The position numbers and the translations under genes are program-made. The notes below the pieces were generated by a model. The model was not told the origin of the DNA and searched no databases. It saw only the letters and a program-made list of their open reading frames with translations. Positions 503 through 55,950 of a stretch of 64,000 bases of DNA are shown here, in pieces. This DNA is from a virus (Duplodnaviria; Heunggongvirae; Uroviricota; Caudoviricetes): the IMG/VR virus record IMGVR_UViG_2541047596_000003; one strand, given 5' to 3'. The stretch's first letter is position 1. Every line of letters begins with the position of its first letter.

Positions 503-3103
503 ATGAGCACAAAACCACTCTTCCTGTTACGGAAAGCGAAAAAATCATCCGGTGAACCTGACGTCGTCCTGTGGGCAAGCAACGATTTTGAATCGACCTG
601 TGCCACTCTGGACTACCTGATCGTTAAGTCAGGTAAAAAACTGAGCAGCTATTTTAAAGCTGTTGCCACGAATTTTCCTGTCGTTAATGACCTGCCCGCT
701 GAAGGTGAGATCGATTTTACCTGGAGTGAACGCTATCAACTCAGCAAAGACTCCATGACATGGGAACTAAAACCGGGAGCAGCACCAGACAACGCTCATT
801 ATCAAGGCAATACCAACGTCAACGGCGAAGACATGACTGAGATTGAGGAGAATATGCTAATCCCAATTTCTGGCCAGGAACTGCCCATTCGTTGGCTTGC
901 TCAACACGGCAGCGAAAAACCGGTAACGCACGTTTCACGCGACGGACTCCAGGCATTACACATTGCTCGGGCTGAAGAACTACCGGCTGTTACTGCCCTG
1001 GCTGTTTCCCACAAAACCAGCCTGCTCGACCCGCTGGAAATTCGCGAACTCCACAAACTGGTTCGTGACACTGACAAAGTTTTCCCTAATCCTGGTAATT
1101 CAAACCTGGGACTGATAACTGCTTTTTTCGAAGCATACCTGAACGCTGACTACACCGATCGAGGACTGCTGACAAAAGAGTGGATGAAGGGTAATCGTGT
1201 TTCACACATCACTCGCACGGCTTCCGGTGCTAATGCTGGCGGCGGAAACCTCACCGATCGCGGCGAAGGTTTCGTACACGATCTGACGTCACTGGCGCGC
1301 GACGTAGCCACTGGCGTACTGGCCCGTTCAATGGATCTGGACATCTATAACCTTCATCCGGCACACGCTAAACGCATTGAGGAAATTATCGCTGAAAATA
1401 AACCGCCCTTTTCTGTTTTCCGCGACAAATTCATCACCATGCCTGGCGGGCTGGATTATTCCCGCGCCATCGTGGTTGCGTCCGTAAAAGAAGCACCAAT
1501 TGGGATCGAGGTCATCCCCGCGCACGTCACTGAATATCTGAACAAAGTACTGACTGAAACCGATCATGCCAACCCTGATCCGGAAATCGTGGATATTGCC
1601 TGCGGTCGCTCCTCTGCCCCGATGCCGCAGCGAGTAACAGAAGAAGGAAAACAGGATGATGAAGAAAAACCGCAACCATCTGGAACAACGGCAGTTGAAC
1701 AGGGAGAGGCTGAAACAATGGAACCGGACGCAACTGAACATCATCAGGACACGCAGCCGCTGGATGCTCAGTCACAGGTAAATTCTGTTGATGCGAAATA
1801 TCAGGAACTGCGGGCAGAACTCCATGAAGCCCGGAAAAACATTCCATCAAAAAATCCTGTCGATGCCGATAAATTGCTTGCTGCATCACGTGGTGAATTT
1901 GTTGACGGAATTAGCGACCCGAACGATCCGAAATGGGTAAAGGGGATCCAGACTCGCGATTGTGTGTACCAGAACCAGCCAGAAACGGAAAAAACCAGCC
2001 CAGATATGAATCAACCTGAGCCAGTAGTGCAACAGGAACCGGAAATAGCCTGCAATGCCTGCGGCCAGACTGGCGGGGATAACTGCCCTGACTGTGGTGC
2101 GGTGATGGGCGACGCAACATACCAGGAAACATTCGATGAAGAGAGTCAGGTTGAAGCTAAGGAAAATGATCCGGAGGAAATGGAAGGCGCTGAACATCCG
2201 CACAATGAGAATGCTGGCAGCGATCCGCATCACGATTGCAGTGATGAAACTGGCGAAGTCGCAGATCCCGTAATCGTAGAAGACATAGAGCCAGGTATTT
2301 ATTACGGAATTTCGAATGAGAATTACCACGCGGGTCCCGGTATCAGTAAGTCTCAGCTCGATGACATTGCTGATACTCCGGCACTATATTTGTGGCGTAA
2401 AAATGCCCCCGTGGACACCACAAAGACAAAAACGCTCGATTTAGGAACTGCTTTCCACTGCCGGGTACTTGAACCGGAAGAATTCAGTAACCGCTTTATC
2501 GTAGCACCTGAATTTAACCGCCGTACAAACGCCGGAAAAGAAGAAGAGAAAGCGTTTCTGATGGAATGCGCAAGCACAGGAAAAACGGTTATCACTGCGG
2601 AAGAAGGCCGGAAAATTGAACTCATGTATCAAAGCGTTATGGCTTTGCCGCTGGGGCAATGGCTTGTTGAAAGCGCCGGACACGCTGAATCATCAATTTA
2701 CTGGGAAGATCCTGAAACAGGAATTTTGTGTCGGTGCCGTCCGGACAAAATTATCCCTGAATTTCACTGGATCATGGACGTGAAAACTACGGCGGATATT
2801 CAACGATTCAAAACCGCTTATTACGACTACCGCTATCACGTTCAGGATGCATTCTACAGTGACGGTTATGAAGCACAGTTTGGAGTGCAGCCAACTTTCG
2901 TTTTTCTGGTTGCCAGCACAACTATTGAATGCGGACGTTATCCGGTTGAAATTTTCATGATGGGCGAAGAAGCAAAACTGGCAGGTCAACAGGAATATCA
3001 CCGCAATCTGCGAACCCTGTCTGACTGCCTGAATACCGATGAATGGCCAGCTATTAAGACATTATCACTGCCCCGCTGGGCTAAGGAATATGCAAATGAC
3101 TAA
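503..3103 (+). CDS. recE: Exonuclease VIII (RecE), 866 aa
   Basis: 866-aa ORF; C-terminal PD-(D/E)XK-type nuclease region; immediately followed by overlapping recT. Confidence 0.93.
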
Positions 3104-3905
3104 GCAACCACCAATCGCAAAAGCCGATCTGCAAAAAACTCAGGGAAACCGTGCACCAGCAGCAGTTAAAAATAGCGACGTGATTAGTTTTATTAACCAG
3201 CCATCAATGAAAGAGCAACTGGCAGCAGCTCTTCCACGCCATATGACGGCTGAACGTATGATCCGTATCGCCACTACAGAAATTCGTAAAGTTCCGGCGT
3301 TAGGAAACTGTGACACTATGAGTTTTGTCAGTGCGATCGTACAGTGTTCACAGCTCGGACTTGAGCCAGGTAGCGCCCTCGGTCATGCATATTTACTGCC
3401 TTTTGGTAATAAAAACGAAAAGAGCGGTAAAAAGAACGTTCAGCTAATCATTGGCTATCGCGGCATGATTGATCTGGCTCGCCGTTCTGGTCAAATCGCC
3501 AGCCTGTCAGCCCGTGTTGTCCGTGAAGGTGACGAGTTTAGCTTCGAATTTGGCCTTGATGAAAAGTTAATACACCGCCCGGGAGAAAACGAAGATGCCC
3601 CGGTTACCCACGTCTATGCTGTCGCAAGACTGAAAGACGGAGGTACTCAGTTTGAAGTTATGACGCGCAAACAGATTGAGCTGGTGCGCAGCCTGAGTAA
3701 AGCTGGTAATAACGGGCCGTGGGTAACTCACTGGGAAGAAATGGCAAAGAAAACGGCTATTCGTCGCCTGTTCAAATATCTGCCCGTATCAATTGAGATC
3801 CAGCGTGCAGTATCAATGGATGAAAAGGAACCACTGACAATCGATCCTGCAGATTCCTCTGTATTAACCGGGGAATACAGTGTAATCGATAATTCAGAGG
3901 AATAA
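3096..3905 (+). CDS. recT: RecT single-strand annealing protein (269 aa)
   Basis: ATG at 3096 ([13 protein letters not shown]...), overlaps recE stop; sequence matches recalled RecT. Confidence 0.93.
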
Positions 3906-3961
3906 TTCAGCCTGGCGGTGTAATGCACCGCCAACTTGAAATATTTTTTATGAGAAAAATT

Positions 3962-4156
3962 ATGAGATATGACAATGTTAAACCATGTCCATTTTGTGGT
4001 TGTCCATCAGTAACGGTGAAAGCCATTTCAGGATATTACCGAGCGAAGTGTAACGGATGCGAATCCCGAACCGGTTATGGTGGAAGTGAAAAAGAAGCAC
4101 TCGAAAGATGGAATAAACGAACCACTGGAAATAATAATGGAGGTGTTCATGTATAA
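3962..4156 (+). CDS. ralR: RalR/Lar restriction-alleviation protein, type I toxin (64 aa)
   Basis: MRYDNVKPCPFCGC... Cys-rich 64-aa ORF downstream of recT. Confidence 0.8.
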   Translation: MRYDNVKPCPFCGCPSVTVKAISGYYRAKCNGCESRTGYGGSEKEALERWNKRTTGNNNGGVHV

Positions 4157-4358
4157 AATTACCGCCACTATTGAAAAGGAAGGTGGCACTCCTACTAACT
4201 GGACAAGATATTCAAAATCTAAACTAACGAAATCAGAATGCGAAAAAATGCTCTCAGGTAAAAAAGAAGCAGGCGTTTCCAGAGAGCAGAAAGTAAAACT
4301 GATAAATTTTAATTGCGAGAAACTTCAGTCCTCGAGAATTGCATTGTATTCAAATTAA
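4149..4358 (+). CDS. ydaC: YdaC-like small Rac protein (69 aa)
   Basis: ATG at 4149 overlapping ralR 3' end; position between ralR and xisR. Confidence 0.65.
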   Translation: MYKITATIEKEGGTPTNWTRYSKSKLTKSECEKMLSGKKEAGVSREQKVKLINFNCEKLQSSRIALYSN

Positions 4359-4436
4359 AACTTCATAGCTGATTATTAATAATCAACATCGGGCGTCAAT
4401 TTCAGTCTAACATTGGCGCCTGCCAGAGGTGATGCG

Positions 4437-4652
4437 ATGGCACAAGTAATCTTTAATGAAGAGTGGATGGTTGAATACGGCCTGATGCTTCGCACTGGTC
4501 TGGGGGCCAGACAAATTGAAGCATACCGCCAGAACTGTTGGGTGGAGGGCTTCCACTTCAAACGAGTATCTCCTTTAGGTAAGCCAGACAGCAAACGAGG
4601 GATTATCTGGTACAACTATCCAAAGATAAATCAGTTTATCAAAGACTCATGA
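4437..4652 (+). CDS. xisR: Excisionase-like protein XisR/YdaQ (71 aa)
   Basis: Small ORF ending 2 nt before the integrase start; classic xis-int arrangement. Confidence 0.7.
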
Positions 4653-4653
4653 T

Positions 4654-5889
4654 ATGTCTAAATTACCAACAGGTGTCGAGATTAGAGGTAGATACATTCG
4701 CATCTGGTTCATGTTTCGAGGAAAACGATGTCGGGAAACATTAAAAGGCTGGGAGATTACAAACAGTAATATTAAAAAGGCCGGAAATTTAAGAGCGCTG
4801 ATAGTTCATGAAATAAACTCCGGTGAATTTGAGTATTTAAGACGTTTTCCCCAGTCCAGCACTGGGGCAAAAATGGTGACAACGAGAGTCATAAAAACGT
4901 TCGGAGAGCTTTGTGATATCTGGACAAAAATTAAAGAGACAGAGTTAACAACAAACACAATGAAGAAAACGAAATCACAATTAAAAACACTCAGAATAAT
5001 AATTTGTGAAAGTACCCCGATATCACATATTCGTTATAGCGATATCTTAAACTACCGGAATGAACTGCTGCATGGAGAAACGCTTTACCTGGATAATCCA
5101 AGATCCAACAAAAAAGGAAGAACCGTGCGCACAGTTGATAACTATATCGCCCTGCTCTGTTCGCTATTGCGTTTTGCGTATCAGTCGGGATTTATATCAA
5201 CCAAACCATTTGAAGGAGTAAAAAAATTACAGCGAAACAGAATAAAGCCTGATCCGTTATCTAAAACAGAATTCAATGCATTAATGGAAAGTGAAAAAGG
5301 ACAGAGCCAGAACTTGTGGAAATTTGCCGTTTACTCAGGACTTCGTCACGGGGAACTGGCAGCTCTGGCGTGGGAGGATGTGGATCTCGAAAAGGGAATA
5401 GTGAATGTCAGAAGAAACCTGACGATACTTGATATGTTCGGTCCCCCAAAAACAAATGCCGGGATCCGAACAGTAACACTACTGCAGCCTGCTCTTGAAG
5501 CACTGAAGGAGCAATACAAACTGACCGGGCATCATCGCAAAAGCGAAATCACCTTTTATCATCGGGAGTACGGCAGAACCGAAAAGCAAAAACTGCATTT
5601 TGTTTTCATGCCCAGGGTGTGTAACGGAAAACAAAAACCTTATTACTCGGTAAGCAGTTTGGGGGCAAGGTGGAATGCAGCAGTAAAACGTGCTGGTATT
5701 CGCCGCCGTAATCCGTACCATACGCGGCATACTTTTGCCTGCTGGCTGTTGACGGCAGGAGCGAACCCGGCATTTATAGCCAGCCAAATGGGGCATGAAA
5801 CTGCGCAGATGGTGTATGAAATTTACGGTATGTGGATTGATGACATGAACGACGAACAGATAGCCATGTTGAATGCGCGGTTATCGTAG
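4654..5889 (+). CDS. intR: Tyrosine integrase IntR (411 aa)
   Basis: 411-aa ORF with C-terminal R..HTRHT..Y tyrosine-recombinase motifs; adjacent to ttcA. Confidence 0.9.
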   Translation: MSKLPTGVEIRGRYIRIWFMFRGKRCRETLKGWEITNSNIKKAGNLRALIVHEINSGEFEYLRRFPQSSTGAKMVTTRVIKTFGELCDIWTKIKETELTTNTMKKTKSQLKTLRIIICESTPISHIRYSDILNYRNELLHGETLYLDNPRSNKKGRTVRTVDNYIALLCSLLRFAYQSGFISTKPFEGVKKLQRNRIKPDPLSKTEFNALMESEKGQSQNLWKFAVYSGLRHGELAALAWEDVDLEKGIVNVRRNLTILDMFGPPKTNAGIRTVTLLQPALEALKEQYKLTGHHRKSEITFYHREYGRTEKQKLHFVFMPRVCNGKQKPYYSVSSLGARWNAAVKRAGIRRRNPYHTRHTFACWLLTAGANPAFIASQMGHETAQMVYEIYGMWIDDMNDEQIAMLNARLS

Positions 5890-8638: not shown

Positions 8639-8668
8639 AAAAAAAAGCCGACTCATCAAAGTCGGCGT
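8639..8668 (-). terminator. Rho-independent terminator downstream of zntB
   Basis: Hairpin GCCGACT..AGTCGGC followed by a T-run on the minus strand. Confidence 0.5.
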
Positions 8669-8855
8669 CGTACGAATCAATTGTGCTATGCAGTAATTCA
8701 AAAAAGGAAGTAAGACAATATGGAGCGCAACGCCCATCGCTTGACGTTGCATTCACCTGCAAGAGAGATATTGCCCTGAATGGGTAGAGAGTTTATTGAC
8801 TTCGCTCAAACTTTGCGGCGTTTTTGTATACAGACAGCCGGAAAAATTGCTTTTG

Positions 8856-21710: not shown

Positions 21711-21965
21711 ATGAAACTGGTAGCGATTGACAGAAATCTGAAAGCACAGAAAAACGCACAGGACCGGATCATCAAGAAAGGTAAGGAATTACTTAAAGCC
21801 TTTCTGAGAAAAGAAGTTTACCCCAAAAAGTTACGCGACGGTTACGGATACAAAATGGATATCAATCTTGATTGGAGGCTGTTTAGCGAAGATTTGAAGG
21901 TTTGGTTAATTGTTGAGCACCATGCCTATAACAAGTTATGTGGCGTGAAAGGCACTCATAAGTGA
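21711..21965 (+). CDS. Hypothetical protein, moron (84 aa)
   Basis: ORF 17 nt after the previous gene with GGGGTGAG RBS; followed by terminator. Confidence 0.5.
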   Translation: MKLVAIDRNLKAQKNAQDRIIKKGKELLKAFLRKEVYPKKLRDGYGYKMDINLDWRLFSEDLKVWLIVEHHAYNKLCGVKGTHK

Positions 21966-31381: not shown

Positions 31382-32268
31382 TCTTCGCCATATTTAGCGT
31401 GCGCAACTTTATAGTTTTCTTGCGCCCGATCTAATATTCGTTCGTTTAATATGTTACCGTCTTCGTCAACTAATACGGTAATCGTGCTACATTTGCAGTT
31501 AATTGAATTAGGGGATCTACTCCACCATTCGCGCTGCTCATCTATGGTGTATGTTTTACCGTGCCGCTGCGCGTGCGATAGCCTGGTAGTCGGTGATAAT
31601 GCCGAAATGTGCATTTGCATAGTGCGCAGATTAAATTCTTCTGTCGCCGCTTCTGCCTCATCCATACGCGCTGTGCGTAACGCTGTGCATATTTCAGTTC
31701 GAGCAATACGTTTACACCTGTATAGCGGTAATTGCGTCTCCTGATTCAATGTGCGCGCTATTTCCAGTGGGTTTAAACCACGGGCCATGCCTTCAGTTAA
31801 TCGCCGGGCCATATCCTTTTTGATCTGTGCGGTCAGCCCGCGCATTTCCTCAAATACACGGGTACGGACCAGAGCAAGGCGTGTTCGGTAAGTTGTACTG
31901 GATAACACGGCAGATACATCAGGGTAGGCGCTTGAGTACGTGACAGACTGGTTAGCAAGGTTGGCATGTTCCTGTGCCGTGCCGCGCTGATAGGCCACCT
32001 TCACGTAATTCTGCCAGAACCAGAAGTTTTCCGGGTCTGTTAGCTCGAATATCTCATCAATCATGTCGCTGGCATCCTCCAGCATGTCGTGAAATTCATC
32101 CATGTAAATCTGAAAGGTGTATTTCTTATTAACAGCCAGGCTATATTGTATCCTGTCCAATATGGCGATATATGGATCGGCTACTTTTTTCAGGCAGGAT
32201 TTGAAACGCTTAATAGCGCCAGACCTCAACCTCCCTGTCATGGTCGGGTCTTCGGTGTTAGATGGCAT
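31372..32268 (-). CDS. Head morphogenesis / minor head protein (Mu F/SPP1 gp7-like)
   Basis: Position immediately after portal; start taken at internal ATG to limit overlap. Confidence 0.5.
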   Translation of the reverse strand: MPSNTEDPTMTGRLRSGAIKRFKSCLKKVADPYIAILDRIQYSLAVNKKYTFQIYMDEFHDMLEDASDMIDEIFELTDPENFWFWQNYVKVAYQRGTAQEHANLANQSVTYSSAYPDVSAVLSSTTYRTRLALVRTRVFEEMRGLTAQIKKDMARRLTEGMARGLNPLEIARTLNQETQLPLYRCKRIARTEICTALRTARMDEAEAATEEFNLRTMQMHISALSPTTRLSHAQRHGKTYTIDEQREWWSRSPNSINCKCSTITVLVDEDGNILNERILDRAQENYKVAHAKYGEDWE

Positions 32269-55302: not shown

Positions 55303-55950
55303 TTATGGCAGGTTTACGATCTTCGCATCAACCACCACGCCTATAATTTTTGATTCTGGATTCATAGGGATTGGCGGATACAGCGGATTGAGCGAACGTA
55401 AAAGCCTTTGACCTCCATCAATAATCAACTGTTTAAACGTCGGTATCTGCCCTTCCTCAAGCTGGGCTATAACCAGTTTGCCGTCAATAGCTGGCGCGTG
55501 CGGGTCCACAAGTATCATCGTCCCCGCCGGGATGCTCAACCCCTGCGGCGCGTTCATTGATTCACCTTTGGCAACCAGCCAGTAACTGTCATCTGAACAA
55601 ATAACGCTAGTCGTAACGTGTCGTAATGCTGAACGCCTTGCGTCATCCATATTGTTTACTGTGTCCTTCCAGTCAATAACCGGGTAACTACCTAAATCAC
55701 GCGGCGGCACGGCCTGAAGTGTATTAGAAACAGAATCATCAATGACCATGCCATCATGTGTAACAGTAAACTGCCGACGACCAAGCTCGCGCATAATCCG
55801 CGCAATATCTTCAAGATTTGGCTCTCGGCGACCGTTCAGCCAGTGTGACAGGCCGCCTTTAGTTATCCCCATACGATCCGCGAGTGAATCCTGGCTCATG
55901 CCCTGCGCCCGCATGAGCTGCTTTGCTAAGTCATACCATTTTGTTTTCAT
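55303..55950 (-). CDS. CI/C2-type repressor with LexA-like S24 peptidase domain (215 aa)
   Basis: N-terminal HTH (QDSLADRMGITKGGLSHW), C-terminal autocleavage domain with GESM Ser and catalytic Lys; divergent from plus-strand early genes. Confidence 0.78.
   Translation of the reverse strand: MKTKWYDLAKQLMRAQGMSQDSLADRMGITKGGLSHWLNGRREPNLEDIARIMRELGRRQFTVTHDGMVIDDSVSNTLQAVPPRDLGSYPVIDWKDTVNNMDDARRSALRHVTTSVICSDDSYWLVAKGESMNAPQGLSIPAGTMILVDPHAPAIDGKLVIAQLEEGQIPTFKQLIIDGGQRLLRSLNPLYPPIPMNPESKIIGVVVDAKIVNLP

Follow-up and report, generated by a model that had tools for sequence, protein, structure and literature searches.

The ralR–rcbA–RalA locus in the left arm of a Rac-type prophage

The segment at positions 3962-4358 of the DNA stretch analysed here (64,000 nucleotides, referred to as the window) very probably represents the ralR–rcbA–RalA module that Rac carries at its left end, in the K-12 sequence form. 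It extends exactly from the start codon of ralR to the stop codon of rcbA (ydaC), and comparison of positions 3900-4420 with the copies in E. coli K-12 resulted in 100% identity. The RalR/RalA locus found here is already known, having been described in 2014 for the Rac prophage of E. coli, and since it is identical to the K-12 copy of this described module, the finding itself is an ordinary one. For annotation, the comparative data suggest some caution, as the RalA gene is nested in rcbA, which appears to be a protein-coding gene under strong purifying selection. If rcbA is a genuine coding gene, this segment bears overlapping information on both strands, which would matter for the use of RalR/RalA as a type I model as well as for any deletion of 'ydaC'. 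To our knowledge, no study has told the phenotypes of rcbA and RalA apart with both expressed at native levels.

The window starts within the left arm of Rac and displays the gene order recE (503-3103), recT (3096-3905), ralR, rcbA, xisR (4437-4652), and intR (4654-5889), followed by the host genes ttcA, dbpA, and zntB. It agrees with the RalR/RalA locus of K-12 Rac (b1348 and b4714; RF02694; Guo et al. 2014) in the sequence of 3900-4420, in the gene order up to intR-ttcA, and in the RalA coordinates, and no difference was detected at the locus itself. The host strain, however, is not K-12, as nine mismatches to MG1655 were counted across the 6.9 kb overlap (none of them within 3900-4420) and a second prophage adjoins zntB. 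Among 5426 complete E. coli genomes, 1895 contained 80% or more of the 3900-4420 segment. Between the stop codon of recT and the start codon of ralR, we also observed a 20-nt inverted repeat (3901-3945, core GGCGGTG-taatg-CACCGCC) that lacks a neighboring T-run and a known role; an attenuator or RNA processing site of a recET-ralR transcript is conceivable.

The RalA gene, its ends, and its predicted fold

Scanning of the whole window against Rfam at the gathering threshold resulted in two matches, RalA and FnrS. The former is an sRNA of 179 nt located at 4155-4333 on the minus strand, matching RF02694 over its full length (model positions 1-179 of 179) with 225.1 bits (gathering score 170) and an E value of 1e-53. 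Anchored on rcbA and ralR, ralA of K-12 MG1655 (b4714, 1413556-1413734) corresponds exactly to 4333-4155. The original prediction had called the ralR frame intact and had expected an antisense RalA within the interval of 3.9-4.4 kb. Both expectations were borne out, the first by an ORF of 64 aa at 3962-4156 (+) and the second by the full-length Rfam match inside this interval, which goes far beyond coincidence; the outcome named beforehand as refuting, an interval with no RalA match, did not occur. Only the term antisense has to be narrowed: RalA is encoded on the opposite strand, but inside rcbA, and shares with the ralR ORF only its last 2 nt (4155-4156), which belong to the ralR stop codon. 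Its start lies within rcbA, 25 nt from the 3' end of this gene, and it runs convergent with ralR, overlapping it on the opposite strand as expected of the antitoxin RNA in type I toxin-antitoxin pairs.

The 5' end of RalA (GAGGACUGAAGU) agrees with the end determined by primer extension (PMC4041452) as well as with a primary transcription start site and the 5' end of an extracellular RNA (PMC7967276). In the latter study, RNA fragments beginning with GAGGACTGAAGT coincided with the primary start site, the RalA 5' end was reported as that of an exported RNA fragment, and RalA accumulation was very low. The 3' end was only predicted, based on a 5-bp stem with a 14-nt loop (PMC4041452), and no northern blot of RalA is mentioned in that paper. 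Expression of RalA was reported to be unchanged across eight nutrient conditions (PMC12266141).

Reading of the sequence upstream of RalA revealed a -10-like hexamer, TACAAT (4343-4348, minus strand), 9 nt 5' of the start and without a good -35 element; due to this poor -35, it was not listed by a consensus promoter scan. Divergent Rac variants retained the hexamer or carried TATAAT, an improved form of it. K-12-type rcbA alleles encode 69 aa, but most other Rac alleles end at codon 62, exactly at position +1 of RalA, and the -10 therefore lies in non-coding sequence in most variants. Its conservation is the best comparative support for the putative RalA promoter being a real one. The region's best sigma-70-like match was found at 4372-4399 on the minus strand (TTGACG-16-AATAAT, 10 of 12 positions), in the same direction as RalA and 39 nt 5' of its mapped end, with the -35 kept in only a part of the Rac variants. 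A longer precursor of RalA might arise from this site. It was set aside as the actual promoter of RalA, given that transcription start site data independently support the mapped end at 4333.

The predicted terminator hairpin of RalA is located at 4163-4188 on the minus strand and corresponds to helix 6 of the Rfam consensus, with the stem GCCAC/GUGGC, a 14-nt loop, and the subsequent stretch GGUAAUUUU. A terminator scan called no intrinsic terminator at the locus, including this hairpin, and natural variants carried uncompensated synonymous changes in the stem. The predicted fold as a whole displayed no extra stability over shuffled sequence (z = -0.26). In an alignment of 31 unique Rac-type sequences, variation affected 23 of the 48 consensus pairs of Rfam, with 62 unpaired cells, 31 one-sided changes, and four compensatory cells. 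Only two of the 48 pairs were changed on both sides (four cells), and 30 of 500 shuffles did as well. None of 500 shuffles reached the observed value for the percentage of cells paired, for the covariation score, or for the count of cells altered on both sides, a result that relatedness of the sequences alone can cause. Variable sites were counted at 27 of 96 stem positions and 16 of 83 loop positions, so that stems were no less variable. There is thus little to indicate that RalA has been selected for its structure as an RNA.

Pairing with ralR and mode of action of RalA

The antitoxin role of RalA rests on the experiments of one paper (PMC4041452). According to this study, ydaC DNA neutralised RalR even with the start codon destroyed or a stop codon introduced, and the RNA-only construct pBAD-ralA neutralised RalR from a second plasmid carrying only the ralR ORF. 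Hfq bound RalA and was needed for its activity, and RalA together with Hfq lowered the amount of RalR protein, not of ralR mRNA, via a 16-nt pairing. Mutations in the 16-nt site abolished neutralisation, and matched M1/M1 mutations in both sites restored it (all PMC4041452). This published account is the best-supported mechanism, by which RalA would be transcribed from its own weak promoter and would pair, together with Hfq, with the coding region of ralR, resulting in less RalR synthesis. In a review (PMC4147584), the locus was regarded as atypical in view of its Hfq-dependent pairing inside a coding region and as needing further work, with end mapping lacking.

The published pairing site comprises nt 63-78 of RalA (UGCUUCUUUUUUACCU; 4256-4271, minus strand; position as in PMC4041452). 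Using a repeat search and reading of the sequence, we located its target in ralR at 4084-4099 (+) (AAGUGAAAAAGAAGCA), covering codons 41-46 (G-S-E-K-E-A). The ralR site and positions 4258-4271 form a 14-nt direct repeat, and the stretch of 62 nt given for RalA before the repeat (PMC4041452) matches a repeat start at nt 63. By hand count, the pairing consists of 14 Watson-Crick pairs, one G-U pair, and one mismatch. When the codon order of rcbA was shuffled 1000 times, 250 shuffles gave a match of at least 16 nt with at most one mismatch (G-U allowed), and 69 gave a perfect run of 14 nt. The 16-nt match is statistically unremarkable and near chance level, and what supports it functionally are the mutants of PMC4041452. 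The RalA core (nt 64-74) was invariant in the 31 unique Rac-type sequences; positions 4084-4099 of ralR vary at third codon positions among natural variants, mostly without compensation in RalA. Folding of full-length RalA with the ralR mRNA using duplexfold gave an uninformative end-to-end duplex of -75.5 kcal/mol, which was matched by 14 of 300 shuffles, and was replaced by an ungapped scan for complementarity. Searching the RIL-seq literature for RalA gave no result.

Since the ORFs of ralR and rcbA overlap by 8 nt and no terminator lies between them, the ralR mRNA likely runs on into rcbA. Only if it does is RalA antisense to the ralR transcript, in which case it would be perfectly complementary to the bicistronic mRNA over its 179 nt. 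Thus, RalA might natively act mainly in cis, pairing over 179 nt with the ralR–rcbA mRNA and controlling rcbA or mRNA stability, with the 16-nt trans pairing being minor or seen upon overexpression only; action in cis could come in addition to that of the 16-nt site or take its place. We regard this as somewhat doubtful. It would suit the 8-nt overlap, which leaves no room for a terminator, and the position of RalA within rcbA on the opposite strand apart from the 2 nt at the ralR stop codon, and a 16-nt match that is near chance level, eroded in natural variants, and absent from Citrobacter-type loci. In addition, an interaction via overlapping 3' ends was raised as a possibility in PMC4147584. 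However, pBAD-derived RalA neutralised RalR from the plasmid with the ralR ORF only and the matched M1/M1 mutations restored neutralisation, both upon overexpression (PMC4041452), and the ralR mRNA levels were reported to be unchanged. The published trans pairing with the ralR coding region keeps its place as the better-supported account.

Among known type I systems, yonT/SR6 of the Bacillus subtilis prophage SPbeta resembles the RalA locus in being prophage-borne, with an antitoxin RNA that is convergent to the toxin gene and overlaps the gene 3' of the toxin (PMC5848175). SR6 truly overlaps the 3' end of the toxin gene and promotes mRNA decay; RalA, in contrast, shares 2 nt with ralR and reportedly blocks translation via a separate 16-nt site with Hfq. 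In the E. coli systems SymE/SymR, TisB/IstR-1, ShoB/OhsC, and Zor/Orz, a small RNA likewise represses the synthesis of an adjacent toxic protein, and SymE shares with RalR the property of being a soluble toxin of the nuclease type rather than a membrane peptide (PMC4147584). While pairing in these systems takes place in the 5' UTR or start region independently of Hfq, that of RalA lies inside the coding region and is Hfq-dependent (PMC4147584).

rcbA and related DUF1187 loci

The gene rcbA (ydaC; 4149-4358, plus strand) encodes a DUF1187 protein of 69 aa (PF06688) and overlaps the ralR stop codon by 8 nt (ATGTATAA). Its deduced product scored 131.7 bits against Pfam DUF1187 (cut-off 20.7), and a Shine-Dalgarno-like GGAGGT was read from the sequence 4 nt 5' of the ATG (4139-4144, +). 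In the view of Guo et al. (2014), ydaC does not code for a protein, and these authors did not see a His-tagged product (PMC4041452). For comparison, loci with DUF1187 relatives were collected from species-representative genomes and viral contigs. Scanning of the viral contigs with the DUF1187 alignment yielded 80 near-identical K-12-type loci, and a rerun with a divergent sequence placed first gave diversity.

Rac variants of rcbA differed from the window copy by 10 synonymous and one nonsynonymous change (dN/dS 0.02) or by 14 and four (dN/dS 0.05), and Citrobacter-type copies by a dN of about 0.23 with dS saturated. Variable sites at third, first, and second codon positions numbered 25, 9, and 8 over rcbA, and 26, 9, and 8 when counted over RalA. 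The ORF was intact at 50-60% aa identity in other genera, namely Citrobacter, Buttiauxella, Symbiopectobacterium, and Izhakiella (five other genera counted), mostly without ralR upstream, and purine-rich Shine-Dalgarno-like motifs precede the DUF1187 start in other genera despite unrelated flanks. Low dN/dS, the excess of third-position changes, and the retention of the ORF in distant taxa thus represent the signature of a translated gene, from which we infer that rcbA is genuinely protein-coding and under strong purifying selection. This coding signature is compatible with the finding by Guo et al. that the protein is dispensable for the neutralisation of RalR. An AF2 model of RcbA (pLDDT 76) displayed a compact beta-beta-alpha-beta domain. 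As a side observation, the A6 run in the core of the 16-nt pairing site (4256-4271) was frameshifted in some rcbA variants from databases (P0041, P0072, and P0075; protein SGKKRSGRFQRAES...), and it may be prone to slippage.

Alternatively, it might be for the RcbA protein that 4149-4358 is selected, with RalA being an antisense transcript of low abundance, restricted to this lineage and of minor physiological importance; the type I label would then describe overexpression phenotypes. This fits the strong purifying selection on rcbA and the retention of DUF1187 genes without ralR in other genera, as well as the lack of convincing RNA covariation, the z of -0.26 for the RalA fold, the very low RalA level (PMC7967276), and the flat expression across eight nutrient conditions (PMC12266141). 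We consider it quite improbable, however, given that ydaC mutated in its start codon or by a stop codon neutralised RalR nonetheless, as did RNA-only pBAD-ralA, that RalA is bound by Hfq and depends on it to act (PMC4041452), and that the -10 element has been conserved where the sequence is non-coding.

Prophages of the Citrobacter type (L009, L010, L104-L108) harbored a Lar/RalR homolog (about 70% aa identity), followed after 11-18 nt by a DUF1187 gene (about 62% aa identity). No RalA-type promoter was found in these ralR–DUF1187 loci, the promoter region being replaced, and the 16-nt pairing was absent, as the sequences of the two sites bear no relation to each other and complementarity did not exceed 13-15 nt at any place in the loci, which is chance level. 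Against RF02694, they reached 29-49 bits. Because these loci keep the protein pair but neither the RalA promoter nor the pairing, RalA appears to be specific to the Rac lineage of Escherichia and Shigella, and the Lar–DUF1187 pair appears to be older. The structure, the terminator, and the 16-nt pairing of RalA have little evolutionary support outside the Rac lineage of Escherichia, and for RalA in general such support hardly goes further than its promoter.

Tentatively, ralR–DUF1187 could be an older two-protein phage module in which rcbA is a real selected gene, with RalA stemming from a recent antisense promoter that is specific to Rac and located inside rcbA, and with the bicistronic mRNA in cis as its main native target. 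We hold this combination to be possible rather than probable. Were it true, the published claim that ydaC does not code for a protein would have to be revised, and so would the purely 'trans-encoded' model.

RalR and the remainder of the window

The ralR gene (lar; 3962-4156, plus strand; b1348 of K-12) consists of an intact ORF for a zinc-ribbon protein of 64 aa of the Lar family (MRYDNVKPCPFCGC...GGVHV), annotated as type I toxin RalR. The protein exceeded the cut-offs of the NCBIfam equivalog NF007260 (166 bits, cut-off 113), Pfam Lar_restr_allev PF14354 (53.5 bits, cut-off 28.6), and TIGR03655 (55.3 bits, cut-off 39.6). Within the motif CPFCG...C..C...WN.R, residues C9, C12, C30, C33, W50, N51, and R53 were invariant in 87 of 87 family members. 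Based on the scores above the cut-offs, the four putative zinc-binding cysteines, and the WN.R signature, RalR is assigned to the Lar restriction-alleviation family, which comprised 909 representative clusters at E ≤ 1e-3 in a full HMMER scan and 5739 proteins at E ≤ 1e-5. RalR shares the invariant signature with Lar/Ral of lambdoid phages (PF14354, TIGR03655); unlike these, the K-12 protein was re-described as a DNase toxin, and most family members have neither a RalA-like partner nor a DUF1187 neighbor. The AF2 model of RalR (pLDDT 79) revealed a four-cysteine zinc ribbon (beta-hairpin) followed by a helix, for which no match to a nuclease-like fold was found. Sequence searches of solved structures with RalR and RcbA gave nothing meaningful, and PADLOC had no model matching either protein.

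The restriction-alleviation function of Lar was reportedly described by King and Murray in 1995. Restriction alleviation, and not DNase toxicity, might accordingly be the native role of RalR, exerted together with recET from the early-left operon of Rac in guarding unmodified recombinant DNA. We think of this as conceivable, though falling short of probable. In its favor, RalR is typical of a very large family of phage proteins to which Pfam, NCBIfam, and PHROGs give the name Lar restriction alleviation, its gene lies directly 3' of recE-recT, the model displays a four-cysteine zinc ribbon with no nuclease-like fold match, and PADLOC gave no match for RalR. Guo et al. (2014), however, found overproduced RalR to be toxic and the purified protein to nick and cleave DNA, unlike the K52Q mutant protein, which displayed no DNA cleavage, and they did not see restriction alleviation by RalR in their assay (PMC4041452). 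Family membership and the predicted model neither prove nor disprove the reported DNase activity, but they keep restriction alleviation as a conceivable native function. The two roles of RalR are not mutually exclusive.

Elsewhere in the window, the second Rfam match, the sRNA FnrS (RF01796, 134.8 bits), was located at 8643-8760 on the minus strand and sits, like its K-12 counterpart, between dbpA/ynaL and zntB. The second prophage is siphovirus-like, comprises at least 54 kb (about 10300-64000), adjoins zntB/ynaN, and is absent from K-12; the part used for comparison, positions 9800-30000, was 99.9% identical to E. coli M1/5. Since M1/5 has no left end of Rac, the strain from which the window derives combines Rac with this second prophage. 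Besides tail, capsid, and lysis genes, the latter carries ERF/SSB recombination genes and an integrase at the end of the window, as well as genes for a ParE-like toxin (21711-21965), an anti-CBASS protein of the Acb1 family (32258-33631), and a LexA-like repressor (55303-55950).
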